NCBI GenBank assembly: GCA_020431915.1
Contig: JAGQHJ010000004.1
Span: 18,393-82,392 of the forward strand
Source of the DNA: Cyanobacteria bacterium HKST-UBA04
GTDB taxonomy: Bacteria > Cyanobacteriota > Vampirovibrionia > Vampirovibrionales > JAGQHJ01
DNA: 64,000 nucleotides
Direction of reading: 5' to 3'
In this document: positions 1 through 22,362 of the stretch, one piece after another
How positions within the stretch are numbered: position 1 is the stretch's first letter
Layout: the number at the start of each line of letters is the position of its first letter
Made by a program: the position numbers and the translations under genes
The notes under the pieces: generated by a model
Databases searched by the model: none
Seen by the model: only the letters and a program-made list of their open reading frames with translations
What the model was told of the DNA's origin: nothing

Positions 1-80
1 ACGACACCCAAAGCTTTACCCTCAACGATCCGCAGTTTGACGTCTAGATTGGAGAGGTTAGACCCCAACCCCAGACGTGC

Positions 81-5805: not shown

Positions 5806-6981
5806 CTAGCACGGGGAGTGGCGGGAAGGGAAGCAAAAGGGTGCCAACAAGGCCCGGGCCTGCTCAACGGCATCATCGGGGTGGGCCGACGCGTCGAGCG
5901 CGTCCCATACCCAATGGCGGGCAAAGGTGCCCATGCCAAGGCCTTGTATAACCTGTATCGGCTGAATTTTGCCTGTACTTGAATCCATGGTCTGCCGCAG
6001 CCAGTGGGCTGTATGTGCATTAATACCACCGGAAACCGTCAAATCAACCTGCGGGTAGTCCCTCAGCAGCGGCGACAACGCTAGCGCCGCCTCAATAGCG
6101 GGCCGCGAGCTCTGTGCATCGCTGGTGGCCGACATCGGGTTACCATCCACCTGGATCATAAACCGCCCCGGAATCAACCGGCTCAGGGTCTCGATGACGG
6201 CCCGGTTATGGGTCGTTTCAAGCCCGGCCGGCCGGTAGCAAAAAGAAATGTACTTGCCCGCCAGCAAGGGGCCAAGGTCATCGAAGCAGCGTTCAATCAG
6301 GTAGCAATCGGCCTGGGCCGAATGGATTTCGACCGATTCGACCCGATCGTCAGCCAAAACCTGCACCAGCCCGTCGCGCAACACAAAGGCGTCGAGGTCC
6401 AGCGCCGTGGTGGGACACACCGGCAGGCATCGGCCACAGCCATAGCACAGGGGCTCGTCTACGTGCAGGTGCCCCGACACGGCGTCGAGGTCGAACACCC
6501 GGGTGGGACACACCGGCAGACAGGCCCCACAGTCAATGCAATCGGGCCGGTTCAGCTGGATCTTGCGAAAGTGCGGGTCATCGTCCAGCGGAAAACTGGC
6601 CATTACCATCGGCCGGGCCACGTCGGCAGGCAACGTGTCGAGCGCTGTCAGGGTCGCCTGAACCACGGCCGGGTGGGCCGACACATCCAGGGCATGGGCC
6701 CCGGCCATGGCAAACACCCTGGCCAGTTGCGCCACACGGCCAAGCTCGTTAAAACTGCCCCCCACAATGACCTTGAAATAGGTATGGGTATCAAGGGCCT
6801 GGGCCACATGCACCGGAAGCCGGCAAGCCGAATCGGCAGGCGGATGGGGCGATTTGGTTTTAGGGGGTGCGGCAACCACAGCATAACCCTCGATTAAACT
6901 AATGCCGGCCTCTAGTGGTTCTCTGTCGATTCTCTTCAGGTCCCGGGCTGTACCATACCCCAAGCAGCCCAGCCAAGCCAT
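5806..6981 (-). CDS. Fe-S protein with two 4Fe-4S ferredoxin motifs, LdpA-like
   Basis: CIDCGACLPVCPT and CYGCGRCLPVCPT motifs. The N-terminal YFKVIVGGSFN...AGAHALDVSAHPAVV resembles cyanobacterial LdpA as I remember it. The family call is not verified by a search. Confidence 0.6.
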   Translation of the reverse strand: MAWLGCLGYGTARDLKRIDREPLEAGISLIEGYAVVAAPPKTKSPHPPADSACRLPVHVAQALDTHTYFKVIVGGSFNELGRVAQLARVFAMAGAHALDVSAHPAVVQATLTALDTLPADVARPMVMASFPLDDDPHFRKIQLNRPDCIDCGACLPVCPTRVFDLDAVSGHLHVDEPLCYGCGRCLPVCPTTALDLDAFVLRDGLVQVLADDRVESVEIHSAQADCYLIERCFDDLGPLLAGKYISFCYRPAGLETTHNRAVIETLSRLIPGRFMIQVDGNPMSATSDAQSSRPAIEAALALSPLLRDYPQVDLTVSGGINAHTAHWLRQTMDSSTGKIQPIQVIQGLGMGTFARHWVWDALDASAHPDDAVEQARALLAPFCFPSRHSPC

Positions 6982-7708: not shown

Positions 7709-8617
7709 ATGACCGACATCATCGACACCGTCGACGCCGTCGATATCGTGCAAACGGAGAGCGACGTGTTTGCCAAACCGGCCCAGCCGACTTCGAGACG
7801 GCAGTTTTTAAAGCAAGGAGCCCTGTTGGCCGGTACCGCGCTGGTTGCCAGCAGTGGTTTGAGCAAGGCCTTTGCCAGCTCCTCCTCTGGTCAAACGGCC
7901 CAGGCCAACCTGCCAACGAATCACCCCCAAATCAAGATGCATGACACCGTGGCCGGCGGCCTGGATTTGCTTGAGCAGGAAACCATCGACAGCCTGAAAG
8001 CCAAGGACTTCAGCCACCTGCTTGGTGGTGGCGTCAAAGGCCTGAGCGACGATCAGTTGTCCCAGCATTTCAAGCTGTATGAAGGCTATGTCGCCAAAAC
8101 CAACCAACTCAATACCCAGCTGGCCAACATCAGCCAACAGGCGCTCGACAGCGCCAACACCAGCATGGGCGAATACCGCGATGCCCTGGTGGCGCGCAGC
8201 TATACCCACAACGGGGCGGTGCTGCACGAACTGTACTTTGGCAACCTCGGCTGGACCACTGATCCCAGCACCTCGCTAAGGGCCTTGGTTGACCGTGATT
8301 TTGGCAACTGGGACCGCTTCCAGGCGCAACTGGTAGCGGCCGGCAAGGCTGCCCGAGGCTGGGCCGTGCTGGTGCTCGACATGCGCGACGGGCACCTGAA
8401 GATATTCGGCATGGACGAACACAACGCCTTTATGCCCGCCATGGCCTACCCGCTGCTGAGCCTGGATGTTTACGAGCATGCCTACATGGTCGACTACGGC
8501 ATTGCCCGGGCCAAGTACCTCGACACCTTCATCCAGAACATCAACTGGGAGGCCGTGCACAAGCGGCTGATGTTTGCCGTGCACCACCTGCAAACCGGTC
8601 CCAAGGTCACGGTGTAA
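7709..8617 (+). CDS. Fe/Mn superoxide dismutase family protein with a twin-arginine (Tat) signal
   Basis: Tat motif SRRQFLKQGALLAGTALVASSG. The C-terminal SOD domain has GWAVLVLD and DVYEHAYMVDYG (compare DVWEHAYY). The N-terminal domain is divergent. Confidence 0.75.
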   Translation: MTDIIDTVDAVDIVQTESDVFAKPAQPTSRRQFLKQGALLAGTALVASSGLSKAFASSSSGQTAQANLPTNHPQIKMHDTVAGGLDLLEQETIDSLKAKDFSHLLGGGVKGLSDDQLSQHFKLYEGYVAKTNQLNTQLANISQQALDSANTSMGEYRDALVARSYTHNGAVLHELYFGNLGWTTDPSTSLRALVDRDFGNWDRFQAQLVAAGKAARGWAVLVLDMRDGHLKIFGMDEHNAFMPAMAYPLLSLDVYEHAYMVDYGIARAKYLDTFIQNINWEAVHKRLMFAVHHLQTGPKVTV

Positions 8618-8968: not shown

Positions 8969-10984
8969 CTAGTGCAACGCGTCGCGGTTTTCGGTACCCA
9001 CAATCTCGACGTCCACCACCTCACCGTCACGGATGTCCTCCGGGAGCGGGGCTGAAATCAACGGATCGTCCGGGAGCTTATCCACAATGGCTTCGGGACT
9101 TTTGATGCGCACGGCATTGACCCGGTGTCCGTCCATGGCCAGCACCGTCAACGTCAGGTCTTCAAATTCCACGGCATCTTCCACCCGGGGCTCCTGGCCC
9201 AGCAGGCCAAACACCACACCGCCCAGGGTCTTGAAGTCGGTGGCCGGAATATTAAAGCCAAAGTGCTGGTTGAGCTTCTCCACCTCAAAACGGCCGCTAA
9301 CGACCAGCTCGTCGGCATTGGGTTGCTCAATCCAATCCTCTTCCTCGTCGTCGGGGTCGTAAATTTCGCCCACGATTTCCTCAATCAGGTCCTCAAGGGT
9401 GGCAATACCGGCAAAGCCGCCATGCTCGTCGACCACCAGGGCCAGTTTGGTTTTGCGGCGCTTAAATTCCTCAAGCAAGTCGCTGATGGGCTTGTTTTCC
9501 GGGTAGACCCCTACCTTTTTAACCAGGGCCTCGATGCTTTGGTTGGCCGGGTATTCGCTCAAAGCCCCCATCACGGTCTTGAGCGTAATAATACCGACAA
9601 TATCGTCCAGGTCGTTTCGGTACACCGGCAGGCGCGAAAAACCGGTTTCCTTGAGCTTGCCCAGGGCTTCCTGCAGGTTGGCCGTCACCTCAATGCAATC
9701 CACATCGGTACGGGGCACCATAATGTCGCTGACGCGGCGCTGGGTAAACTCGTACACGTTAACCAGCATCTGCTCTTCGGTGGGTTTAATCACCTCGTTG
9801 CGCACCCCAAGATGCACCACCCGGGCAAACTGGTTGCGCCACTCCTGATCACTTTCGTGGGCCACCACCTCAATCAGCACTTCCTTGACGGTCTTAAATT
9901 TGGTATGCACGCGGTCACGCACATGTTCGGTCAGGTCATCCACGTCCTTAACGGCGATATCGGGGTCTACTTCAACTCGAAGGTGCACCACCACACCGCT
10001 CATGCCGTAGTCTGCCGTTTTCAGGTCCAGAACAGCGGTAATACCGTGGATGTTATGCACATACTCGCGGATGTGCCGCTCAACGACCGGCCCGGCACTC
10101 GACCCGGTCAGACCCCGGCTGTTGTGCAGAAACAGGTAGACCCCCAAGCCCACAATCATCAACCCAATGACCACCGAGGCGAATGCATCCGGGAAATGGC
10201 TGTATTCCTTTGGAATCAGGCCAACATGAGGACCGAATTTGCTCATGGTAATGGCAATAAGGGCCAGCAAGGCACCTAAAAAGGCCAGCGAGTCTTCATA
10301 AAACACAAACCGGGTGGTGGGGCTCACCACGTACCGAACCTGCTTGAGGGCACGCAAAATGGTTCGCCAGGGCCGGTCATCCTCCAGCCCCTGCTCGGCC
10401 AGCACGGCACTGGCCGCCATATAGACCGCCCCGATTTCAAGCACAATGCTCATCAGCAGCACCAGGGCCGAAACCGCAAATATCTCGTGGGCTTCCGGGT
10501 GCATCAGCCGGTCAATCCCCAACGAGATGGACCATCCCCCCAACAACAACATAAACAAGCTGGCCAGCATGGCCCACAGGGTGGTTTCCAGCCCATAGCC
10601 AAAGGGATGGGTCTTGTCGGCTGCCCGCGACCCCTTTTGCAAGCCAATTAGCAGGAAGCCGCTGTTGATGGCGTCGGCATACGAGTGGATGGCTTCCGAC
10701 ATCATCGAACTGTGCCGGCCAATAAGCCCGGCAAACAGCTTAATAGAACCAATGACCACGTTGGCCAGCAAGGCCACGATAACGGCCCGGCGTCCATGGA
10801 GCTTGGAAAACGTATAAACCGGGGACGATCGGGTAGGGTCAGGATCCGCATCTTCATCGGTGTAATCCACCACGTTGGTGGCCGGATAAATCACAACCGG
10901 AGAAGCCGATGAGTTGATTTGCTGGGCCTCGCGGCCCCGTCTACTGTGAGGGTCGTTCATAGTGTGGTGGGGGTTACCAAACAA
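8969..10984 (-). CDS. cation diffusion facilitator transporter fused to a CBS-pair and CorC_HlyC domain
   Basis: The N-terminal part carries CDF signatures (HSYADAINSGFLL, DKTHPFGYG, a six-TM pattern and a cytoplasmic domain). The C-terminal part carries RVSDIMVPRTDV, VVDEHGGFAGIATLEDLIEEIVGEI and a CorC_HlyC-like tail. Confidence 0.8.
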   Translation of the reverse strand: MFGNPHHTMNDPHSRRGREAQQINSSASPVVIYPATNVVDYTDEDADPDPTRSSPVYTFSKLHGRRAVIVALLANVVIGSIKLFAGLIGRHSSMMSEAIHSYADAINSGFLLIGLQKGSRAADKTHPFGYGLETTLWAMLASLFMLLLGGWSISLGIDRLMHPEAHEIFAVSALVLLMSIVLEIGAVYMAASAVLAEQGLEDDRPWRTILRALKQVRYVVSPTTRFVFYEDSLAFLGALLALIAITMSKFGPHVGLIPKEYSHFPDAFASVVIGLMIVGLGVYLFLHNSRGLTGSSAGPVVERHIREYVHNIHGITAVLDLKTADYGMSGVVVHLRVEVDPDIAVKDVDDLTEHVRDRVHTKFKTVKEVLIEVVAHESDQEWRNQFARVVHLGVRNEVIKPTEEQMLVNVYEFTQRRVSDIMVPRTDVDCIEVTANLQEALGKLKETGFSRLPVYRNDLDDIVGIITLKTVMGALSEYPANQSIEALVKKVGVYPENKPISDLLEEFKRRKTKLALVVDEHGGFAGIATLEDLIEEIVGEIYDPDDEEEDWIEQPNADELVVSGRFEVEKLNQHFGFNIPATDFKTLGGVVFGLLGQEPRVEDAVEFEDLTLTVLAMDGHRVNAVRIKSPEAIVDKLPDDPLISAPLPEDIRDGEVVDVEIVGTENRDALH

Positions 10985-11205: not shown

Positions 11206-11523
11206 TTACTTACCCAGGTCCTCAAGGAAAATCTCATCACCAAGCCGATGGCCCTGCTCCAGAACAAACGGCTCGTCCTCTTCCTCCAGCTTAGCGGGCT
11301 TTTTAAACAGCTCGTCCACCCAGCCTGGGTTCTTAATCCGGTGCCCCAAGGGCTGATCCACAATTCGGCCAATCTCTCGGCCCAGCACACCAAGTACAAC
11401 CGCCGCCAGCACAGCAAATATTGTGGCGTGGAAGGCGTTCTGCGTATTTAACCAGCTGGAAACCAGCACCAGCAAAAAGCCGGCGGAGGCAAACAGGTAC
11501 ATTAATCGCGTTTTTTGGTACAT
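11206..11523 (-). CDS. hypothetical small membrane protein (2 TM, acidic tail)
   Basis: Two hydrophobic helices followed by KLEEEDEPFVLEQG. It lies immediately downstream of flhA on the same strand. Confidence 0.5.
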   Translation of the reverse strand: MYQKTRLMYLFASAGFLLVLVSSWLNTQNAFHATIFAVLAAVVLGVLGREIGRIVDQPLGHRIKNPGWVDELFKKPAKLEEEDEPFVLEQGHRLGDEIFLEDLGK

Positions 11524-11598: not shown

Positions 11599-13692
11599 TT
11601 AAACGGCGGCATTGGCGGTTTCCACCTGCACGGCCCCCAGGGAGCGTACCCTGACGGTGGGGCCTATTTCGTTGTACGACATCACGGCTATCTGCGGCAA
11701 CATCCGTTCAATCAACCGGCGAATGGGCAGGCGGATAACGCCGTTGCAAAGCAGCACGGGCTGAATACCCTCCTGCATCAGCACGGCTTCTACCTGCTGG
11801 TTTATGCCGTTGAGCAGGCCCTGGGTAAAGGAGGGGCTTAGCGACAGAAGCTGCTTGTCATCACTCAGGCCCTGGGCAATCTCGTCCTCGACGGCCGGGG
11901 CCATGGTAATAACCGGCAGTTCGCCACTGGACGGGTCTTCATACTGCTTGCAAATGCTTCGGCTCAGGGCCATGCGGCACTGTTCGGTCAGGTAGTCCAG
12001 TTCCTTGCTGACACGGGCATGGTAGCCCAAGGCATCGAGCACAGCCGTCAGGTCGCGAATACACACGCGCTCACGCAGCAGGTTCTGCAAAATGGCGTGC
12101 AGCTCGGGCAGGGAAATCAGGTCGGGCACGACGTCGTCCACCAGGCTTTCGGCGGTCGTGCGCAGGTTGTCCAGCAGCTGCTGCACGTCGCCACGGGTCA
12201 GGATGTCGGCAGCATACCGTTTGACCGTCTCGCTGAGATGGGTGGCCACCACCGCCGAAGCCGTTACCACGGTATACCCTTTTGCCTCGGCCTCCTCCTG
12301 CTTGGCCTTGCCAATCCACAAGGCCGGCAGGCCAAAGGCGGGTTCCTTGGTCTCCAGGCCCTGAATCGCCTCTTCGGTGCCATCGGTATTCATGGCCATA
12401 ATCATATCGGGCCGAACGTCACCGGTTTCAATAACCACCCCGCGAAGCTTTATCTGGTAGTTGTTCGGGGGCAGTTGCAAATTGTCGCGCACCCGGATAC
12501 TGGGCAATACCATCCCCAGATCCGTGGCCACCTGTCGGCGAATCTGGGCAATACGGTCCAGCAGATCGCCATCCCTGTCGCCTTCAAGCAGGGGCACCAA
12601 CCGGTACCCAATTTCCAGTTCCATGGCTTCGACGTTAAGCAGCTCCAACACCGCCTCGCGACTACCAGGCTTCTTGCGCTTCTCGGTCGCCTCTTCCTGG
12701 GTGGCCTGCACCGCCGCCATTTCCTGGCGCTTTTTGTCTTTTTTAACCAAACTGAACGCGCCCACACCGGCAATAACGGCAATAACCATAAACGGTGCAG
12801 TCGGTAACCCCGGCACCAGCGCCAAAGCACCCAGCAACCCGGAGACCGTACCCAGAACCTTGGGATTGGCAAACATTTGCAGTTGAATATCATCGCCCAG
12901 GCTGGATTTTTCATCCTCGGCCACGCGGGTAATCAGGATACCGGTTGCCGTTGAAATAACCAGCGCCGGCAGTTGCGACACAAGGCCGTCACCGATGGTT
13001 AACACGGTAAACGTTTGTACGGCCTGGTCTATGGGCATGCCCAGCTGGAAAACCCCAACCACCAAACCACCAATAAGGTTAACCAGCACGATAATAATAC
13101 CGGCAATGGCGTCGCCCTTCACAAATTTCGACGCACCGTCCATGGTCCCGTAGAAGTCGGCTTCGGTCTGGATTTTCTTGCGGCGTTTCTTGGCATCCTC
13201 TTCGGTAATCAACCCCGCATTCAGATCGGCATCAATACTCAACTGTTTACCGGGCATGGCATCCAAGGTAAACCGGGCGGCCACCTCGGCCACACGGCCC
13301 GCACCGTTGGTAATAACGATAAAGTTGATGACCACCAGGATAATGAAGATCAACACACCCACCAGATAGTTGCCGCCCACCACAAAGTTGCCGAAGGCTT
13401 CAATCACCTCGCCGCCCTGGGCTGTGGTCAGGATGAGCCGGGTCGTGCTGACGTTCATCCCCAGCCTGAACAGGGTAGCCACCAGCAGGATGGTGGGGAA
13501 GGTGGAATACTGTAGCGGCTCGTTGGTATAGATGGTGACCATCATCATCGTCACGCTCAGAGCCAGGTTGACCGTCAGCAAGATGTCAACGAGCATCGGT
13601 GGAATCGGCAGCACCAGCATGCCAATCATCAGCGCAATGGCCACGCTGAGCATGATGTCTTTATGCTTCAGGATGCGTTGCAACTGTTCCAT
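11599..13692 (-). CDS. flhA: flagellar biosynthesis protein FlhA (export gate)
   Basis: 697 aa. N-terminal TM region with FPTILLVATLFRLGMNVSTTRLIL and RVAEVAARFTLDAMPGKQLSIDADLNAG (FHIPEP motifs), plus a large cytoplasmic domain. Confidence 0.92.
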   Translation of the reverse strand: MEQLQRILKHKDIMLSVAIALMIGMLVLPIPPMLVDILLTVNLALSVTMMMVTIYTNEPLQYSTFPTILLVATLFRLGMNVSTTRLILTTAQGGEVIEAFGNFVVGGNYLVGVLIFIILVVINFIVITNGAGRVAEVAARFTLDAMPGKQLSIDADLNAGLITEEDAKKRRKKIQTEADFYGTMDGASKFVKGDAIAGIIIVLVNLIGGLVVGVFQLGMPIDQAVQTFTVLTIGDGLVSQLPALVISTATGILITRVAEDEKSSLGDDIQLQMFANPKVLGTVSGLLGALALVPGLPTAPFMVIAVIAGVGAFSLVKKDKKRQEMAAVQATQEEATEKRKKPGSREAVLELLNVEAMELEIGYRLVPLLEGDRDGDLLDRIAQIRRQVATDLGMVLPSIRVRDNLQLPPNNYQIKLRGVVIETGDVRPDMIMAMNTDGTEEAIQGLETKEPAFGLPALWIGKAKQEEAEAKGYTVVTASAVVATHLSETVKRYAADILTRGDVQQLLDNLRTTAESLVDDVVPDLISLPELHAILQNLLRERVCIRDLTAVLDALGYHARVSKELDYLTEQCRMALSRSICKQYEDPSSGELPVITMAPAVEDEIAQGLSDDKQLLSLSPSFTQGLLNGINQQVEAVLMQEGIQPVLLCNGVIRLPIRRLIERMLPQIAVMSYNEIGPTVRVRSLGAVQVETANAAV

Positions 13693-14840
13693 CAGGCATG
13701 GCCTCCGTCAGGTTGCAAACCGGGATCGGGCATGGGGCCCACCAGCTTGCGCCAGCGGTCGCGTTGCTGACGCCGCCCCTTGTTCTGGGTAAAGATAAAC
13801 GCCAGCACCTGGGCCACCGCCACAAACAGGTGCGGCGGAATCATATGGTCCACTTCCACCTGGGCATACAAGGCACGGGCCAGGGGTTTGTTTTCCATCA
13901 TCGGTACCCCATGGGCCTTGGCCACTTCCCGGATTTTGAACGCCAGCACATCGGCCCCCTTGGCAATAACACGCGGTGCGGCACATTCATCCGGATCATA
14001 CTGGATGGCCACGGAGAAGTGGGTCGGGTTGGTCAGTACCACATCGGCCTGGGGAACGGCTGCCAGCATGCGTTTTCTAACCAGGGACTGCCCCACGCTT
14101 TTCATCTTGCGCTTCATTTCGGGGCTACCTTCCGAATTACGCATCTCGTCCTTGATTTCCTGGCGGCTCATGCGCAACTGCTTCATCAACTGGAAAATCT
14201 GGTAGCGCCAGTCGGCAGCCCCCAACACAAACAAGGCCAGCCCAACACCAAGGGTCATGTTCAGAATCGTCTGGAACAGTCCGCTGCTGGCATGGATGAG
14301 GGTCATCTGCCCGGTGCTCAACAAAAACCCAAGCTGGGCCTGTACCACAAAAAAGCAAACAGCAGAGACCAGGGCAATTTTAAGAATCCCCTTAACCAGC
14401 TCGACAAGAGCGCGCTGGCTAAACATGCGCTTGAAGCCTTCGACCGGGTTAAGCTTGTTGAACTTGGGATGGATGGCCTCGAAGGCCACCAGTGGCTTGA
14501 CCTGGAACAGGTTGATGCTGGCGCCCACAATCATGGCACCCACCAGGAACGGGGCCATCAACAGGGTCATATGCATTACGCCGCTGCTGAAGAGGTGCAG
14601 AAAGGCATCGAGGGACATGGGCGCCTTGCCGCTGACCGCCATCTGATGCACAAAAAACTGGCGAAACAGCCGGATCAGGTAGGCCAGCATGGTGGGGCCA
14701 TACAGGCTTAACACCAGCATAATGCCGCCAATAACCATAGCGGCCGTCAGATCCTGGCTTTTGGCCACCTGGCCTTTTTTCCGGGCATCGGCTATTCGCC
14801 TTGGCGTGGGTTTTTCGGTTTTTTGTCCGGCGTTGGACAT
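13692..14840 (-). CDS. flhB: flagellar biosynthesis protein FlhB
   Basis: N-terminal QKTEKPTPRRIADARKKGQVAKSQD and the autocleavage site LTNPTHFSVAIQY. Its end abuts the flhA start by 1 nt. Confidence 0.92.
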   Translation of the reverse strand: MSNAGQKTEKPTPRRIADARKKGQVAKSQDLTAAMVIGGIMLVLSLYGPTMLAYLIRLFRQFFVHQMAVSGKAPMSLDAFLHLFSSGVMHMTLLMAPFLVGAMIVGASINLFQVKPLVAFEAIHPKFNKLNPVEGFKRMFSQRALVELVKGILKIALVSAVCFFVVQAQLGFLLSTGQMTLIHASSGLFQTILNMTLGVGLALFVLGAADWRYQIFQLMKQLRMSRQEIKDEMRNSEGSPEMKRKMKSVGQSLVRKRMLAAVPQADVVLTNPTHFSVAIQYDPDECAAPRVIAKGADVLAFKIREVAKAHGVPMMENKPLARALYAQVEVDHMIPPHLFVAVAQVLAFIFTQNKGRRQQRDRWRKLVGPMPDPGLQPDGGHA

Positions 14841-14911
14841 CGGCGGTTACCTTGGACTCCTTAGTGTGGGGGTGTTGGGTGTTGAGAAAGAAAAATCGGG
14901 GAAAGCGAGGG

Positions 14912-15697
14912 TTAACGGAACTGGTACAGCTTGGGCAGCACGGTGGCCAGGTCGCCAAACTGGTGACCCACCAGTTCCATGACAAACGGCATGGTAATCA
15001 GCATCAGCACAAGACCAATCCAGATTTTGAAGGGCAAGCTGACAATGAACATGTTCATCTGGGGCATCACCTTGGCCGTATAGGCCAGGGCCACCTCAAG
15101 GGTAATCAGGATGCCAAAAACCGGAAATGCCACAAGCAGGGCCGTGATAAACATCGTTGAGCCCATCACCAGCAAGCGCTCAATCAGGATGTTGGTTTGG
15201 ATAAGGGCGGCGCCGTCAACCAGGGGCACCAGCTCGAAACTTTTGGCCAGGGCAACAATAACCGTGTGGTGGACATTGAGGGTCAGAAACAGGGTGGCCG
15301 CCAGGATAAAATACAGCTGGCCCATGCCGGCCGACTGGTTTTGCGAAAACGGGTTGAAGCTCTGGGCCATGGCCAGGCCCATCTGCTGGCTGACCAGTGT
15401 TCCGGCCATTTCAACGGCATTGAAGACCAGCCGCACCAGGAACCCGATAATGAGCCCAATGACCAGCTCCTGTATCCCCAACAGCGCAACCTGCCACAAA
15501 TCGGTGGCCACCACGGCCTGGGCCGGCTTGTAAATCGGGTACAAAATCAGGGTCAGCGTCGCCATAAAACCAACCTTAACCTGCATCGGGATCTGCGTCT
15601 GGCTAAACAGCGGCGTGGCCAGAATCAGACCGGAGATGCGAATCAGCATCAGCAGGAACACAAGAATGGTTGAGGGGGTCAGGGCGGATAAATCCAC
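14912..15697 (-). CDS. fliR: flagellar biosynthesis protein FliR
   Basis: A 261-aa polytopic membrane protein between fliQ and flhB, with an FliR-like LLMLIRISGLILATPLF N-terminus. Confidence 0.85.
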   Translation of the reverse strand: MDLSALTPSTILVFLLMLIRISGLILATPLFSQTQIPMQVKVGFMATLTLILYPIYKPAQAVVATDLWQVALLGIQELVIGLIIGFLVRLVFNAVEMAGTLVSQQMGLAMAQSFNPFSQNQSAGMGQLYFILAATLFLTLNVHHTVIVALAKSFELVPLVDGAALIQTNILIERLLVMGSTMFITALLVAFPVFGILITLEVALAYTAKVMPQMNMFIVSLPFKIWIGLVLMLITMPFVMELVGHQFGDLATVLPKLYQFR

Positions 15698-15781
15698 AAA
15701 CAGTGGCGCTCCAAGGTTGGTTATCAGGTGGTGGGGGTTATGGGATTAAATAAATGCGTTGAAGAAAGGAAGGGGAAAAAC

Positions 15782-16054
15782 TTACATGTGGGCAATGGTG
15801 GCCAACGAGCGAAGCATGTTCTGCGAATGGCTGAGAAAGACCGACAGCATCCAGGGACTAATCATCACCAGAGTCAGCAGGCAGGCCAAAATTTTGGGCA
15901 CAAAGGTCAGGGTGGCTTCCTGAATTTGCGTCACCGCCTGGAAAAGACTGACCAATAACCCCACAGCCAGTGCCACCAACAAAACCGGGGTGGCCAGCAG
16001 CAGGGTCAGCCAGATGGCTTCCTTAACCAGATCGAGAAATACCATTTCCGTCAT
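15782..16054 (-). CDS. fliQ: flagellar biosynthesis protein FliQ
   Basis: 90 aa and 2 TM. Carries the conserved SLFQAVTQIQEATLTFVPKI block. Confidence 0.9.
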   Translation of the reverse strand: MTEMVFLDLVKEAIWLTLLLATPVLLVALAVGLLVSLFQAVTQIQEATLTFVPKILACLLTLVMISPWMLSVFLSHSQNMLRSLATIAHM

Positions 16055-16072
16055 GCCGGACTCAAACTCCTA

Positions 16073-16897
16073 TTAACCGAAGCCCAGAACCAGGGCTTCC
16101 GACAGCAGGTGCCACCCGTCGACCAGTACAAACAACACAATCTTAAAAGGCAGTGAGATGGTAATGGGCGGCAAAAACAACATCCCCATCGACACCAGGA
16201 TGCTGCTGACCACCATGTCGATAATGAGGAAGGGCAAAAAGATGACAAAGCCCAACTGGAACGCCGTTTTCAATTCGCTGATAACAAAGGCCGGCAACAG
16301 CACATAGGTGGGTACGTCTGCCTGGGTCTTGGGCTTCTCAAGCTTGGCCAGGTTCACAAACAGGGCCAGGTCCTTGTCATCGGTTTGCTTGAACATAAAC
16401 TGCCGAATGGGGGCCAAGCTGCGATCCAGGGCCACCTGCTGCGAGATTTTCTTGTCCAGGTAGGGCTTCAGTGCCGTTTCGTTAATGGTGGAAAAGGTCG
16501 GGGTCATCACGAAAAAGGTCAGGATAAGCGAGAAACCAATCACCACCTGGTTGGGTGGCAGCTGGGGCGATCCGATGGCCTGCCGGGCCAGGGACAATAC
16601 AATAACGATGCGGGTAAAGGCGGTGGTCATCACCATAAAAGCCGGGGCCAGCGTCAGCACCGTCAACAAAATCAAAATCTGCAGGCCCTGGCTCAAATCC
16701 TCGGGGCTATTGGCCTGACCCACCCGAATGTCGAGCGTCGGCAGTCCCAGTGCCTGGGCCGAAGACGGGACATTCCAGCCCAGCAGTACCAGCCCAATAA
16801 CCAAGGCCGCCAACAGGAACAGCCCCTTAACGGCATGGGACGGCAGGCTGGGGACAGTGGCCAGTACACGGTTGTGGCGCGTAATAACGACGCTCAT
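16073..16897 (-). CDS. fliP: flagellar biosynthesis protein FliP
   Basis: Conserved MTTAFTRIVIVLSLARQAIG, PPNQVVIGFSLILTFFVM and AFVISELKTAFQLGF blocks. The start is set at the ATG at 16897, preceded by AAGGTGAG. The track ORF extends to 16948. Confidence 0.88.
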   Translation of the reverse strand: MSVVITRHNRVLATVPSLPSHAVKGLFLLAALVIGLVLLGWNVPSSAQALGLPTLDIRVGQANSPEDLSQGLQILILLTVLTLAPAFMVMTTAFTRIVIVLSLARQAIGSPQLPPNQVVIGFSLILTFFVMTPTFSTINETALKPYLDKKISQQVALDRSLAPIRQFMFKQTDDKDLALFVNLAKLEKPKTQADVPTYVLLPAFVISELKTAFQLGFVIFLPFLIIDMVVSSILVSMGMLFLPPITISLPFKIVLFVLVDGWHLLSEALVLGFG

Positions 16898-17174
16898 ACG
16901 CTCACCTTTACTCTTGGCTCGATCGGCTAAGGCACGCCCCCAATACAACTGGGGTAGCCTCAGGGCACGGAGGGTGTCACACGTTTATTTCCAGAAAAGA
17001 CCGGTCGGTTCAGGCATCAGGCCTGCTTCCAGTCCTATCAGCATAATGACGTATGACCCGATCAGCGTCACCATCTGAATGGGGGAGAGCAGCGGGTGAT
17101 GGGGCGATTTCTACACCGAACGGAGGAGGGGGACAAACCCACCCGAAGCAGATCGGTACGGCCAAGGGGGCCGT

Positions 17175-17936
17175 TTACGGAGTGGCTGGTTGCCGGGCAA
17201 AAAAGTGGCTGGCCAACGCCTCGGCATGCGGCAAGTCGTCCTGGGTCGTCAGCTTGATGTTGAAGGGATCATCGGGCACCATCCGCACGGTCTGGCTTTC
17301 ATCGCAAAACGTCTCGACGAGCGCCGCATCATCCGTGAGAAACGGCTCGCCGCTGACGGCTTCGTGGGCCGCCTTTAAAATACCGTAGCGGAAGGCCTGC
17401 GGGGTATGAACCTGCCACAGCCCGGCCCGGGAAATGGTTTTTTTGACGGGGCTGCCTTCGCTTACATCGCAAACTTCCTTGAGGGTGTTGGTCATCGGCG
17501 CCCCCAGCGAGGCCCCCACGGTCGGGCTGTTGTCAAACACCGCCAGCAAATCGTCGATACGGTTAGGGCGCACAAACGGCCGGGCCCCATCGTGAATCAT
17601 CACCAGACGATCGGCATCGGCCACCTTGTCCAGGCCCAGGGCATTAAGGCCATTCTCAACCGACGCCCGGCGTGTCGGACCGCCTTCGACCCATTGAACG
17701 GGCTTGCCACCAAGGGCAATCACCTGCTCAAGGTATTGCCGGTACACCCCCATGTACTCCGGGTTGGCCACCACCACCACCCGACCCACCCGCGGGTGGT
17801 TCAGCAGTACCCCGGCACTCCAGTGCAACACCGGCTGGCCCGCCAGCAGGTGCAACAGCTTAGGCGTGCTTTTGCTAAACCGAAGCCCCGCCCCACCGGC
17901 AACCAGAATACCTATAACATCGGCTTCAGGTGACAT
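17175..17936 (-). CDS. ispD: 2-C-methyl-D-erythritol 4-phosphate cytidylyltransferase
   Basis: The N-terminal ILVAGGAGLRF, IHDGARPF and a typical length of about 230-250 aa. Confidence 0.85.
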   Translation of the reverse strand: MSPEADVIGILVAGGAGLRFSKSTPKLLHLLAGQPVLHWSAGVLLNHPRVGRVVVVANPEYMGVYRQYLEQVIALGGKPVQWVEGGPTRRASVENGLNALGLDKVADADRLVMIHDGARPFVRPNRIDDLLAVFDNSPTVGASLGAPMTNTLKEVCDVSEGSPVKKTISRAGLWQVHTPQAFRYGILKAAHEAVSGEPFLTDDAALVETFCDESQTVRMVPDDPFNIKLTTQDDLPHAEALASHFFARQPATP

Positions 17937-17954: not shown

Positions 17955-18953
17955 TCATTGGGCAACGGGTGGACAACTGGAAAAATGATCATAACACCGT
18001 TTGGCCTCCAAACAAACGCGTCCGCCCTGCCCGTCCAGCCACACCTGCCCCCCTTGCCCGGTAGAGGGCTTGAGACGACCCACAACGGTTAAAGCCGGGT
18101 AACGTCGCACATCGGCCTCGGGCAGACAAAGCACCAGTTCGAAATCCTCTCCCCCGTAAAGCACCCAATCGAGCGGATCCACCCCCAATCGGTCGGCCAG
18201 CGCCAACAGGTCGGGCTGTAGCGGCAATTGGTCTGCCGCCAGCACCATGTCCACTTGGCTAGCAGCAGCCAGCCGAAGCAGCGCATCAGCCAGCCCGTCG
18301 CTGCTGTCCATCACGGCCCGGTGCTGAACAGTGCCAGCCAACTGCATACCCAGTGACAACGGTGGATTGGGCCGACGATGGGCCAGAACCAACGCCTCAA
18401 ACTCGGTGCCTAACCCGGCACGAATGGCAGCCAGTCCCGCAGCACTGCGTCCGTGGGGACCGCTAATAGCAACCACGTCACCGGCCTGTGCCCCATCACG
18501 CCGACCCACCTTGGCCCCTGCTTCCATCTGCCCCCCCATCGACACGGTCACCATCCACTGCGATCCCCCTACGGTGTCGCCGCCCACCAACGGGCAAGCA
18601 AAGTGACGGCTGGCAGCCTCCACCCCGTCATACAACGCGCCCAGTGCCTCAAGGCCGTCATGGGCAGGGGCAGGCACAACCACCCCCACCATCATCCAGG
18701 CCGGGCAGGCGCCGGCCGAGGCCAAGTCGCTGATGCTGGCTGCCACACTACGCCAGCCCACATCGGCCAGTGCCATGGTAGACTGGCTGCCGCTGAGGGC
18801 AAAATGCTGCCCCTCCACCAGAACATCCGTCGTCAACACCTGGCGCGACGACGGATCGTAGTGGGTGTCATGGCCAAAATCGCTGCCCGAAAACCGGTGT
18901 TGCAGGCAGGCAATCCATTGCTGTTCCGTATTGAGGGCGGTGGGTTGTTTCAT
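17955..18953 (-). CDS. thiL: thiamine-monophosphate kinase
   Basis: AIR-synthase-like fold motifs TTDVLVEGQHF, SISDLASAGACP and DSSDGLADAL. Confidence 0.8.
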   Translation of the reverse strand: MKQPTALNTEQQWIACLQHRFSGSDFGHDTHYDPSSRQVLTTDVLVEGQHFALSGSQSTMALADVGWRSVAASISDLASAGACPAWMMVGVVVPAPAHDGLEALGALYDGVEAASRHFACPLVGGDTVGGSQWMVTVSMGGQMEAGAKVGRRDGAQAGDVVAISGPHGRSAAGLAAIRAGLGTEFEALVLAHRRPNPPLSLGMQLAGTVQHRAVMDSSDGLADALLRLAAASQVDMVLAADQLPLQPDLLALADRLGVDPLDWVLYGGEDFELVLCLPEADVRRYPALTVVGRLKPSTGQGGQVWLDGQGGRVCLEAKRCYDHFSSCPPVAQ

Positions 18954-19094: not shown

Positions 19095-19304
19095 CTAGGC
19101 CATCACGTTCAGACGGCTGCCCTGCATGGCGTTGCCCACTTTGGGCTGGTTTAGGTTACCGCCCACAAAGGCATTGCTGCTGACGGACTTACCAAACTCA
19201 ATATCGGGCAGTTGCATTTGTTGTTGTCTCGGGCCACCGGCAGACAAAGCCTGCGGGCTTTGCATCTGGTTACGGAAGGCAATCCCTTGCATCGCATTTA
19301 CCAT
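19095..19304 (-). CDS. small Gly/Gln/Asn-rich protein, paralog A of a 3-member family
   Basis: It shares MQGIA, SAGGP and a C-terminal AFVGG...LNVMA with the ORFs at 20366..20680 and 20829..21134. No TM segment, signal peptide or Cys. Confidence 0.6.
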   Translation of the reverse strand: MVNAMQGIAFRNQMQSPQALSAGGPRQQQMQLPDIEFGKSVSSNAFVGGNLNQPKVGNAMQGSRLNVMA

Positions 19305-19733
19305 AATGACGAGCTAACTCCTACAGTACAGTCTTTACCTAAAGTCCCACACGATTCGCTACGGGGTCTCGATTCGCACACATAAACGGGGAACGGGAAT
19401 AAAGTGGTGTTTCGCTGGCCGGTCAAGCGGGGTCTGTTTCATGGCCGCATCAAGCCAAACGCCACGTTTTTCACCCTCTATTATACCAGTTTTATAGCAA
19501 ACTGGCAAATAGGCCCTTAGAAACCACTGCAATTAGTACGTCTTGGCAGTTGTTAATCGCTGCATTCCCTGCCCAGTCTTTCAAAACCACCCCCGGCATA
19601 CGATAACCCCTTGAGCCGGGCCAGACTTGAAATCTTGCCCTTTTCAGCCTATGCTGCACCTAAGTTACCCCAGTAGACCGCTACTGTCGTGTCTTTTCAG
19701 TAAACAACCTTTGTTCAGGAAGGAGCCCTCCCC

Positions 19734-20255
19734 ATGATCCAAGTCGGCAAAGCCGCACCCGAATTTACCGCCCAAGCCGTCGTCGACGGCCAAATCAAGG
19801 AAGTAACCTTGAACCAGTACAAGGGCAAGTGGGTCGTACTGTTCTTTTACCCCCTCGATTTCACGTTTGTCTGCCCCACGGAGATCCAAGGCTTCGATGC
19901 CCAGTTTGCCGAGTTTGAAAAAGCCAACGCCCAAATTCTGGGTATCAGCGTGGACAGCGTCTACTCGCACCTCGACTGGATGAAAGACCTTGGTCAACTG
20001 AAGTTCCCGCTGCTGAGCGACATCACCAAACGCATCAGCCGCGAATACGGCGTACTGAAAGAAGATGCCGGCATCAGCTTCCGGGGCACCTTCCTCATCG
20101 ATCCCGATGGCGTGTTGCGCAGCTACGTGGTCAACGACCTGAACGTGGGCCGCAACGTGGAAGAAACCCTGCGTCTGGTCCAAGCCTTCCAAACCGGCGA
20201 ACTGTGCCAGGTGGGCTGGAAACCCGGCCAACAAACGCTGGGTGCTGCAGGCTAA
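19734..20255 (+). CDS. 2-Cys peroxiredoxin (AhpC/Prx1 family)
   Basis: [14 protein letters not shown] peroxidatic-Cys motif. The resolving Cys lies in [17 protein letters not shown] Shine-Dalgarno upstream. Confidence 0.92.
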
Positions 20256-20308
20256 AACCTTACAGGCACACAGCGCCGGTTTACCCAAACCACCCCCCCA
20301 TCTTTAAC

Positions 20309-20345
20309 AAAAACCCCCGGTCTGGTTGCAGACCGGGGGTTTTTC
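20309..20345. terminator. bidirectional rho-independent terminator
   Basis: aaaaACCCCCGGTCtggttgcaGACCGGGGGTtttt. This is a 10-bp GC-rich stem flanked by an A-run and a T-run, between the convergent peroxiredoxin gene and the 104-aa gene. Confidence 0.9.
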
Positions 20346-20365
20346 AAATCTGGAAATGGCAGAGG

Positions 20366-20680
20366 TTAGGCGAAAATGTTGAGGCCTTGCGGACCATCAC
20401 TGGCCACACGGCTAAAGCCGCCAAAGGTTTTGGCAACCCCGTTCGTTACGTTGGGCGCCAGGTAGTTGATACCGACATCCGGGCCACCGGCTCTGGGGGG
20501 TTGTTGGGCCCCACGGGCCACGGCGGTAATGGCTTCAACCCCGTCCACCCCTTGGGTGAGGAAGGGATTGGACATAAACGGCGTGGTTTGCTGCTCGGCG
20601 GCACGCTGGCGACCCGCTTCCATTTGACGAAGCGCGTTGGTACCGGCGGTGATGTTTCTCAGTTGAGCGATGCCTTGCAT
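20366..20680 (-). CDS. small Gly/Gln/Pro-rich protein, paralog B of a 3-member family
   Basis: Shares MQGIA with A, SNPFL with C, RAGGP with both, and a C-terminal TFGGFSRVA...LNIFA. Bracketed by terminators. Confidence 0.65.
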   Translation of the reverse strand: MQGIAQLRNITAGTNALRQMEAGRQRAAEQQTTPFMSNPFLTQGVDGVEAITAVARGAQQPPRAGGPDVGINYLAPNVTNGVAKTFGGFSRVASDGPQGLNIFA

Positions 20681-20718
20681 AGCAAATCCAATACATTAAG
20701 TAACTCGTTATATGAATA

Positions 20719-20787
20719 AACAATCAAACGGGGCCAAAATTGCCTGTTTCATTTAATGTGTTTACTTATTTTAACAATCAAACGGGG
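20719..20787. repeat. two exact copies of the 15-mer AACAATCAAACGGGG, 54 bp apart, in the promoter region of paralog B
   Basis: Copies at 20719-20733 and 20773-20787, read directly. A CTGTTTCAT element (20744-20752) lies between them. Confidence 0.85.
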
Positions 20788-20789
20788 TC

Positions 20790-20815
20790 TAAAAATGGCC
20801 GACGGCTGGGTCGGC
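20790..20815 (-). terminator. rho-independent terminator after paralog C
   Basis: On the minus strand, GCCGAC-ccagcc-GTCGGC is followed by CATTTTTAG. It begins 14 nt after the stop codon of the 20829..21134 gene. Confidence 0.55.
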
Positions 20816-20828
20816 TTAACAAGCGGGG

Positions 20829-21134
20829 CTAGGCGAGGGTGTCCATCCGGTTGGCCACTTTGCTCAGGCCACCGCCAAACGTGGGCATCATGCCGCCATT
20901 TTGTCGGCTGGGATGCAGCAGACCGTTTTGCTGGCCCCCGATACCGGCCACCTTGGTTTGCAGGGGCGATTGCTGCCCAAAACCAACCTGCCGGCCTCCG
21001 GCAACACCGGCACCTGCACCCATCTGAGCAGGCTCGCGAACCGGGGGCTTCGGGCCGCCAGCACTTTGCGCCCGATCCAGGAACGGGTTGCTGGCTTGTG
21101 GCTTAATGGCTTGTGTTTGCCCAATTGGCGCCAT
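20829..21134 (-). CDS. small Gly/Gln/Pro-rich protein, paralog C of a 3-member family
   Basis: SNPFL, SAGGP and a C-terminal PTFGGGLSKVANRMDTLA are shared with A and B. It lies 114 nt downstream of the MerR gene on the same strand. Confidence 0.65.
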   Translation of the reverse strand: MAPIGQTQAIKPQASNPFLDRAQSAGGPKPPVREPAQMGAGAGVAGGRQVGFGQQSPLQTKVAGIGGQQNGLLHPSRQNGGMMPTFGGGLSKVANRMDTLA

Positions 21135-21248
21135 GGTGAATCGCGGTGTCCTAAAAAACGTCCCTACAAAATAGTCGCTGTTAGGATAAAACCATGAACA
21201 TAAGGGGCTTTGCTAAGCCAGGTACGGATTTTAAGATAAACTTAAGCT

Positions 21249-21731
21249 TTAGGGCTGCAGGTGGTTGGCCTTGTGCTGGCACCCAGGATCGCAGGGGGCG
21301 TTGTGGTGCTCGACCTGGCAGGTGGTACAGGCCTCAAGAATCGCCAGGGTACGGTCCACGTCCTGCTTCATTTCCTCCAGCTCAATAAGCTTTTCCATAA
21401 TCTTGTCGCGCTTAACCTTAAGCGCCGCGCGGGTATTGCGCACAATATCGGCATCGTCCTGCCAGTTGCTGCTGGTACCCATCAAGGCCCGGATATCGTC
21501 GAGAGAGAAGTCCAGCTTCTTGAGAGACGCAATAAACCCCAAGCGATGGATAACCGTGGGCGAATACAAGCGGAAGTTACCTTTTGTCCGGTTATCCGGT
21601 TCAATAAGGCCTAATTCCTCGTAATAGCGCAAGGTACGCAACGTTAACCCGGTTTGAGCCGCCACATCGCCTATTTTAAGCAAGCCCACTGGCATAGAAC
21701 AGCTTTTTATAGGTTGTTCCAGTACGATCAC
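21249..21731 (-). CDS. MerR family transcriptional regulator with a Cys/His-rich C-terminus
   Basis: HTH LKIGDVAAQTGLTLRTLRYYEELGLIEPDNRTKGNFRLYS, then a coiled-coil dimerisation helix. The tail CTTCQVEHHNAPCDPGCQHKANH has 4 Cys and 4 His. GTG start with GGAG 8 nt upstream. Confidence 0.88.
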   Translation of the reverse strand: MIVLEQPIKSCSMPVGLLKIGDVAAQTGLTLRTLRYYEELGLIEPDNRTKGNFRLYSPTVIHRLGFIASLKKLDFSLDDIRALMGTSSNWQDDADIVRNTRAALKVKRDKIMEKLIELEEMKQDVDRTLAILEACTTCQVEHHNAPCDPGCQHKANHLQP

Positions 21732-22140: not shown

Positions 22141-22362
22141 ATGAACAATCTGATGAATGCGTGGTTTACTGCAAAAATGATGATTGCTACCAAGAAGCGC
22201 GGTCAAGGCGTTGTAGAATACGCCGGTGCTCTGGTAATTGCAGCCCTGATCGTAGGTGCTGTACTGACTGTAGGTCAAACCGGTATGCAAACTGCCTTCC
22301 AGGCCGTTATTACCGCTATCCAAACCTACCTGACCACCCAAGCCGGCAACATCGGTGGTTAA
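22141..22362 (+). CDS. flp: Flp family type IVb pilin
   Basis: 73 aa. Leader plus processing motif KKRGQG/VVEYAGALVIAALIVGAV (the G-xxxxEY Flp motif). AGAGGAG Shine-Dalgarno upstream. Confidence 0.85.
   Translation: MNNLMNAWFTAKMMIATKKRGQGVVEYAGALVIAALIVGAVLTVGQTGMQTAFQAVITAIQTYLTTQAGNIGG

Follow-up and report, generated by a model that had tools for sequence, protein, structure and literature searches.

Small orphan proteins around a peroxiredoxin gene in the Vampirovibrionales

What are the small, glycine-rich proteins encoded on either side of a peroxiredoxin gene in a non-photosynthetic relative of the cyanobacteria? The window considered here comprises 64,000 nucleotides of contig JAGQHJ010000004.1 (positions 18,393 to 82,392; G+C about 57%) from Cyanobacteria bacterium HKST-UBA04, a member of the Vampirovibrionales. 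Its minus strand carries three short open reading frames (ORFs): A (19095..19304; 69 residues from the first ATG), B (20366..20680; 104 residues), and C (20829..21134; 101 residues). They lie around the 2-Cys peroxiredoxin gene prx (19734..20255, plus strand). A first-pass annotation had picked out these ORFs, and the ORF listing agrees on coordinates and lengths. It took them to be real, clearly related paralogues that match no recognised family, and offered two ideas about their function: stress-induced proteins controlled by a neighbouring MerR-type regulator, or leaderless substrates of the nearby flagellar export gate. We find that A, B, and C are, close to certainly, real protein-coding genes, and that they probably represent one family whose status as a Vampirovibrionales orphan is also close to certain; the two functional ideas fare less well.

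B shares 97% identity with a hypothetical protein from 'Cyanobacteria bacterium HKST-UBA03', and 93% with another, from a 'Vampirovibrionales bacterium'. The HKST-UBA03 contig (L001) has the same gene order as the window, and its DNA is 99.4% identical. A genome scan with the neighbouring MerR protein yielded three further Vampirovibrionales contigs (L005, L006, and L007), whose MerR proteins are about 60% identical to that of the window. All three carry small ORFs at equivalent positions. The comparison spans four lineages (the window lineage, L005, L006, and L007) and nine small proteins: four of the A-type, and five of the BC-type that includes both B and C. The syntenic A-type orthologues lie at 10749-10940 in L005, 7832-8038 in L006, and 7645-7848 in L007; the corresponding BC-type genes lie at 9626-9916, 6600-6974, and 6575-6820. 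(The database version of the L007 BC-type protein, P0007, adds seven residues from an upstream GTG start.)

Several lines of evidence show that these ORFs encode proteins. A codon model was trained on 18 recognisable genes in the window, which themselves range from 0.26 to 0.71 bits per codon (log-odds). In their proposed frames A scores 0.39, B 0.37, and C 0.33, inside the known-gene range. The other frames, and the long antisense ORFs that overlie A, B, and C, score near zero or negative (-0.87 and -0.80 for the other frames of A). Of the 9-10 substitutions that separate B from its counterparts in close strains, seven hit codon position 3 and position 2 is spared; every indel in B and C has a length divisible by three, including an in-frame one of 12 nt in C. 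Across genera, 7-17 of the 12-27 identical residues in A-type pairs use different codons (17 of 27 for L005 versus L006). Residues kept with different synonymous codons mean that conservation acts on the protein, which rules out a nucleotide repeat; frame-independent conservation, the sign of such a repeat that the first-pass annotation had named, is not what the alignments display. Its view that these are real genes rather than noise is upheld.

Who else has them? B, C, and a family profile were run in word-indexed searches against 5.8 billion protein clusters, and 1.84 billion cluster representatives were searched exhaustively with HMMER; nothing came back but this family, from four or five Vampirovibrionales lineages. 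The matches to B, C, and the family profile are confined to near-identical strains and the syntenic proteins of L005-L007, and the exhaustive search of the 1.84 billion representatives added no relatives beyond the Vampirovibrionales. None of 80 metagenomic loci recovered by a MerR-alignment scan (their MerR proteins being at most about 40% identical at full length) encodes a family member. Among the curated libraries, namely Pfam, NCBIfam, PHROGs, and PDB sequences, nothing scored below E = 0.07, and each weak match involved a single family member. The earlier remark that the proteins match no recognised family thus extends to library, cluster, and HMMER profile searches, all of which ended without a characterised match. 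This is, to judge by these searches, a lineage-restricted orphan family, new as a sequence family.

What do the proteins look like? All share the same anatomy: they are conserved at both ends, in a short N-terminal motif and a C-terminal tail, with an indel-prone, fast-evolving, low-complexity middle in between. The blocks quoted in the first-pass annotation (MQGIA, SNPFL, AGGP, F-G-G...V-A, and the hydrophobic-x-A end) are all present in the sequences, and the best family consensus lies at the extreme C-terminus: G-x-[RQ]-[LIM]-[NDQ]-hydrophobic-x-[AG]. Six of the nine tails end hydrophobic-x-Ala and three end in Gly, with a polar Asn, Asp, or Gln kept inside. The composition is rich in Gly, Ala, Gln, Asn, and Pro (Gly 7-24%), and charged residues are scarce; the isoelectric point (pI) is about 10 (9.8-11.5) in eight of the nine proteins, and the grand average of hydropathy (GRAVY) runs from -0.01 to -0.63. 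Cys is absent from A, B, and C, and one Cys occurs in the proteins of two relatives. No 15-residue stretch is hydrophobic enough to form a membrane segment or the core of a signal peptide (maximal Kyte-Doolittle mean below 1.0). Composition and hydropathy scan agree here with the original description of A, B, and C as free of Cys and of transmembrane segments.

That description had also proposed disorder on grounds of composition, and structure prediction points the same way. AlphaFold2, supplied with the family alignment, gives A a mean predicted local distance difference test score (pLDDT) of 58 with no secondary structure, and B a mean of 49 with one short helix at residues 15-24; such low values are in part expected from shallow alignments. 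Low pLDDT and composition fit together, and the proteins are predicted to be intrinsically disordered, a conclusion that is close to certain.

The A-type proteins form the coherent half of the set. They span 63-68 residues, and their similarity across genera is significant in Smith-Waterman comparisons with shuffled sequences (z 3.2-6.4 to window A, and up to 13 among the other orthologues). A profile made without L005 retrieves the L005 A-type protein at E = 7.6e-6 among 7920 ORFs. The conserved block, ...GNL(N/L)xP(K/R)xGG(Y)PGAAGNR(L/I)(N/D)xx(A/G)-end, runs to the last residue; window A ends GSRLNVMA. Translation of A probably begins at the second ATG, at 19292 (MQGIA...), giving 65 residues, because this start is in register with that of B and matches the lengths of the orthologues.

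In all four lineages the A-type gene stands back-to-back with prx and just upstream of thiL. Its window promoter (19480..19508, minus strand) is close to the sigma-70 consensus: TTGCCA, 17 nt, and TATAAT, with a TG before the -10 element. The promoters in L005, L006, and L007 follow suit (TTGCxA/TAGGCA-16..18-TATAAT, 9-10 of 12 consensus matches). Back-to-back with the A promoter lies that of prx (19627..19655, plus strand; TTGAAA, 17 nt, TATGCT), a block that, by inspection, is kept in the prx/A-type intergenic regions of L005-L007. These near-consensus promoters point to strong expression of the A-type gene and prx without an activator, not specifically to induction by stress. The A-type protein is probably abundant, since a near-consensus promoter precedes its gene in every lineage. 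The leader of A (19293-19473, minus strand) is about 187 nt long; in L005-L007 it measures 54-60 nt, a difference that points to an insertion of about 130 nt. Rfam gives no match for this leader, and its folding is no better than that of shuffled sequence (z +1.87).

The BC-type proteins are longer (81-124 residues), fast evolving, and far more divergent than the A-type; among BC-type pairs, only B versus the L005 protein is clearly significant (z 4.4). B carries the SNPFL motif and the tail QGLNIFA, and C carries SNPFL and SAGGP and ends NRMDTLA; an NPF motif is found in four of the five proteins. In every lineage a BC-type gene converges with prx. L005, L006, and L007 have a single BC-type gene at the position held by B and C, and the regions upstream of B and C can be aligned by inspection; for these two reasons, C is most simply a lineage-specific tandem duplicate of B, promoter and terminator included.

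Each BC-type gene (B, C, and those of L005-L007) is preceded, by inspection, by a shared promoter-proximal AT-rich block, GCAAT..TGTTT(TT)AT..TATA(A/G) (..TATAGAG). The clearest promoter within the group is that of L006, ATGACA-17-TATAGT. GGAG-type ribosome-binding sites precede the small genes in the relatives. Upstream of B lie two 21-nt direct repeats (20719-20739 and 20773-20793, minus strand), 54 bp apart, with an exact 15-mer core, CCCCGTTTGATTGTT, of which the 64 kb hold exactly two copies. They could be candidate sites for some regulator. The idea that CCCCGTTTGATTGTT is a dispersed repeat element in the window was rejected, looser matches being at chance level. (A weaker look-alike, AGACCCCGCTTGA, lies in the A leader at 19423-19435.)

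Both terminators described in the first-pass annotation are there. B and prx end at a common bidirectional intrinsic terminator (20309..20344), a perfect 16-bp stem whose 16-nt arms are 100% complementary, with a 4-nt loop and flanking A/T runs; equivalent hairpins are visible in L005-L007. A second, terminator-like hairpin follows C (20798..20815, minus strand), with a 6-bp stem including five G-C pairs and then CATTTTTAGA, and so B and C are separate transcription units. In the last codons and 3' untranslated region of prx (20237-20330), the window and L002 depart from L001, whose DNA is otherwise 99.4% identical. The window has 31 nt inserted here, part of which (20265-20282) copies prx coding bases 20191-20208, around the resolving Cys, in inverted orientation (83%). 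The loop of the B/prx terminator also differs between the window and L001, and its stem is kept.

Which neighbours are constant? Of all the neighbours, only the peroxiredoxin (AhpC/TSA family; Pfam PF00578, 1.5e-43) accompanies both gene types in every one of the four lineages. The A-type gene is followed immediately downstream, again in four of four, by thiL (17955-18953, minus strand; Pfam AIRS/AIRS_C) and ispD (17175-17936, minus strand; Pfam IspD). The invariant core consists of a BC-type gene; a convergent prx, with which it shares a hairpin terminator; a divergent A-type gene; and thiL and ispD on the A-type strand. The truly conserved neighbours are prx and thiL-ispD, and not the MerR gene or the flagellar genes. 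Co-occurrence of homologues with prx and the MerR gene, which the first-pass annotation had put up for checking, holds for prx, and for MerR adjacency in three of the four lineages only.

Taken together, these features suggest a tentative general picture, read from anatomy and neighbourhood, that we think possible rather than probable: the small proteins would stay in the cytoplasm as disordered binding proteins, possibly linked to peroxide stress or proteolysis. The two conserved ends would be short linear motifs that dock on a conserved cellular partner, and the middle would be a flexible spacer. The non-polar Ala/Gly tail, of the type read by AAA+ proteases or PDZ-type domains, could set the stability of the protein or recruit it to such a machine. 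The constant link with prx hints at a role in peroxide stress or proteostasis. The partner-docking mechanism itself is more doubtful than this general picture.

Several points weigh against such a role. The link between A-type and BC-type proteins consists of short motifs, whole-sequence tests being not significant, and the mechanism is read from anatomy and neighbourhood. The four genomes are related, and common ancestry, not function, may account for the synteny. With a polar Asn, Asp, or Gln at positions -5/-4, and with Gly ends in three of the nine proteins, the tail is something other than a textbook ssrA-like LAA end. Finally, the near-consensus sigma-70 promoters of prx and the A-type gene argue against a strictly stress-induced unit.

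Are A-type and BC-type proteins really kin? The alternative, which concerns the structure of the family and not its mechanism, is that two unrelated orphan families share a composition and a convergent or coincidental tail. We consider this unlikely. The first-pass annotation called A, B, and C clearly related, and at the level of whole sequences that was too strong: BLASTP among the three gives E values of 0.077 to 2.5, and Smith-Waterman scores against 1000 shuffles give p = 0.025 for B and C, p = 0.061 for A and C, and p = 0.22 for A and B. The last two values speak for two separate families. Profiles speak the same way. The A-type profile finds BC-type proteins without significance (best E = 0.44), the BC-type profile does not find the A-type at all, and profile-profile comparison reaches P = 0.008 over the last 18 columns only, with an hhalign probability of just 5%.

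It is the ends, the part of the claim that survives, that argue for common descent. The A-type tail motif is G-x-R-[LI]-[ND]-hydrophobic-x-[AG]-end. When 7595 ORF ends, from the window and every other locus retrieved, are scored with a matrix made from the four A-type tails alone, the five BC-type tails rank 1, 4, 8, 53, and 242. At the N-terminus, the L007 BC-type protein matches the L005 and L007 A-type proteins at p = 0.0005 each, and A matches B at p = 0.01, among 20 cross-type comparisons. At the nucleotide level, A and B share short in-register identities around their start codons and over AGGP, as do A and C over KV(G/A)N; and in each of the four lineages the two types stand on either side of one prx gene. 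The reading that best accommodates these facts is of one family, in which the ends are constrained and the middle drifts freely. (Second in the tail test came a window protein with the tail GHRVNLHG, encoded at 46534-48801 on the minus strand; it has no other resemblance to the family and was judged a chance match. It is a 755-residue, Pro/Ala/Thr-rich protein without a Pfam match, and looks largely disordered.)

Is the locus a stress unit run by its MerR-family regulator? The MerR gene (21249..21695, minus strand) encodes 148 residues from the ATG at 21695, or 160 from an in-frame GTG at 21731. As first described, it lies 114 nt upstream of C and encodes a Cys/His-rich C-terminal tail, CTTCQVEHHNAPCDPGCQHKANH. 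The tail carries the signature CxxC-x8/9-CDPxC..K..H, and its four Cys are invariant in the four orthologues (those of the relatives lie at 5968-6429 in L005, 5980-6426 in L006, and 5965-6429 in L007). Its Pfam and NCBIfam matches all fall below the NCBIfam equivalog cut-offs for CueR, ZntR, CadR, MerR, and SoxR. Such a protein might sense a metal or an oxidant, and activate the small genes and prx, the small proteins serving as protective disordered proteins. The four invariant Cys would suit a sensor, prx is always adjacent, and in the window, L006, and L007 the MerR gene lies directly upstream of a BC-type gene on the same strand.

Nevertheless, the arrangement and the promoters make this reading rather unlikely. 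In L005, two Tad genes intervene between the MerR gene and the BC-type gene. The MerR gene is just as often (three of four lineages: window, L005, and L006) adjacent and divergent to the Flp/Tad pilus locus, which in the window starts at 22141, on the opposite side of the MerR gene from C; the L007 MerR gene follows a tRNA-Arg gene. MerR regulators classically stand divergent to their targets, and as candidate targets the pilus genes would be equal to the small genes or better. Upstream of the five BC-type genes we found neither a MerR-type promoter (19-20 bp spacer, at least 9 of 12 consensus matches) nor a conserved inverted repeat, although a weak site is possible; the L006 BC-type promoter has a 17-bp spacer, and the prx and A-type promoters are near-consensus sigma-70 promoters. 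The suggestion of MerR control came down to adjacency, and no evidence requires direct control by the neighbouring MerR protein.

Are the proteins instead exported? Disordered, almost Cys-free proteins could leave the cell without a Sec signal, by way of the flagellar type III gate or a different export system, with the conserved N- or C-terminal motif as the signal; they might even be predation effectors, the lineage including an obligate predator of Chlorella. This we regard as improbable. The absence of signal peptides and membrane segments, and the conserved ends around a variable middle, are compatible with it, as is the NPF motif in four of five BC-type proteins. In the window, moreover, the export-gate genes fliP-fliR-flhB-flhA (11599-16948; fliQ is called in the near-identical L001) lie 2 kb from A. 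The A-type tail GNRLNISA resembles flagellin GLRINSA, a lead only; the latter motif lies in the mapped flagellin export signal.

The flagellar gate, however, stands next to the locus only in the window lineage, after ispD. In L006 and L007, large unrelated ORFs without flagellar-gate features (they were not scanned for families) converge on ispD instead, and the proposal of leaderless flagellar substrates thereby loses support. No ABC/membrane-fusion transporter or other dedicated exporter was found among the window ORFs scanned, a pI near 10 without GGxGxD repeats does not suit type I substrates, and there is no Pfam match to flagellin or FlgM even at E <= 10. The conserved tail is C-terminal, whereas flagellar export signals are N-terminal. 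A bolder version would make the ends targeting signals, and the proteins disordered, leaderless cargo of an envelope machine, whether the flagellar gate or some other, with GNRLNISA mimicking GLRINSA and NPF engaging EH-domain endocytic proteins of the prey. That version is a long shot; if true, it would define a new class of tail-tagged disordered effectors or export regulators.

The last alternative would have the ORFs arise by chance over repeat DNA or non-coding RNA, in a genome of 57% G+C. It can draw on small size, low-complexity composition, weak Shine-Dalgarno sequences for window B and C, and the long antisense ORFs across the same DNA, yet it is very improbable in the face of frame-specific codon usage, position-3 substitutions, in-frame indels, cross-genus protein conservation with synonymous changes, GGAG ribosome-binding sites that stand 7-13 nt ahead of the start codons in relatives, and an Rfam search of the locus that gave only sub-threshold terminator look-alikes.

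A few observations on the wider neighbourhood deserve mention. Directly downstream of flhA is a 105-residue ORF (11206-11523, minus strand) that is also called as a gene in L001; its N-terminal half is hydrophobic by inspection, it has no Pfam family on record, and it is unrelated to A, B, and C. The FliP ORF (16073-16948, minus strand) has an N-terminal extension of about 90 residues: the Pfam FliP domain occupies residues 94-286, and L001 calls a protein of 274 residues. This extension could be a fused FliO-like segment, or an artefact of an upstream start. Two redox-related genes lie near each other, within 12 kb of the prx locus: a 302-residue ORF (7709-8617, plus strand) with an Fe/Mn superoxide dismutase C-terminal domain after a long unmatched N-terminal part, and a gene for an LdpA-like Fe-S protein (5806-6981, minus strand).

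What would follow if the tentative picture held? Two short end motifs joined by a disposable linker lend themselves to clean peptide baits and clean mutants, in a group of non-photosynthetic cyanobacterial relatives for which, to our knowledge, almost no gene function has been tested. If the ends are a degradation, docking, or export signal, the same signal can be searched for in other proteins of these genomes. There is no evidence so far for a new kind of mechanism, and the finding alone makes no long-standing question testable.

How, finally, do these proteins compare with known systems? FlgM, the KGG hydrophilins, type I substrates, double-glycine peptides, and clamp-binding peptides were each considered, and each comparison fails at a defining feature. 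FlgM is a disordered anti-sigma-28 factor exported by the flagellar type III system. The likeness lies in size (FlgM has about 90-100 residues), predicted disorder, lack of Cys, and, in the window, nearby flagellar export genes. However, A, B, and C have no Pfam match at E <= 1, and none of the nine members matches FlgM (PF04316) at E <= 10; AlphaFold predicts no helices in the C-terminal half, where FlgM binds sigma-28; and the flagellar neighbourhood is peculiar to the window lineage, the A-type promoter being of the sigma-70 type. Hydrophilins and KGG-repeat proteins, such as Escherichia coli YciG and Bacillus subtilis GsiB, are likewise small, Gly/Gln/Asn-rich, structure-less cytoplasmic proteins, and the stress-related prx neighbour hints at a similar role. 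The proteins described here have no KGG match in Pfam, are only mildly hydrophilic although their Gly content lies above the 6% that marks hydrophilins, and conserve end motifs where KGG-repeat proteins have internal repeats.

Class II microcins and other double-glycine-leader peptides (60-100 residues) resemble the family in size, in a Gly/Ala/Asn-rich composition, and in having several paralogues per locus. Here the double-glycine leader consensus is absent, neither a C39-peptidase ABC exporter nor an immunity gene was found among the window ORFs scanned, and what is conserved instead is a housekeeping context (prx, thiL, and ispD). Type I substrates differ too: none of the nine members contains GGxGxD, and eight of nine are basic rather than acidic. 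Beta-clamp-binding peptides (QL[SD]LF) are often C-terminal, as in UmuC (QLNLF), and three tails resemble them: QGLNIF-A in B, QSLQIL-A in the L005 BC-type protein, and QLNVV-G in that of L006. But the Gln is in register in only three of nine tails, most members having Arg, Asn, or Ser, and three A-type proteins have Ser, Cys, or Thr where the motif ends in a hydrophobic residue. A resemblance to the DnaK model peptide NRLLLTG was set aside, the tail being polar where entry into the hydrophobic pocket of DnaK is needed.

There remain the degradation tails of the ssrA type (...ALAA), which are read by ClpXP, FtsH, and Tsp. The likeness is a hydrophobic-x-Ala end in six of nine members, as the best-conserved part of disordered proteins; the differences are that the tail keeps a polar Asn, Asp, or Gln within it and that three members end in Gly. 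(A transfer-messenger RNA tag for comparison was not found in the window, L001, or L005-L007.) Set beside all these systems, the family adds one well-delimited orphan to the large pool of taxonomically restricted small proteins, a kind that is itself familiar.

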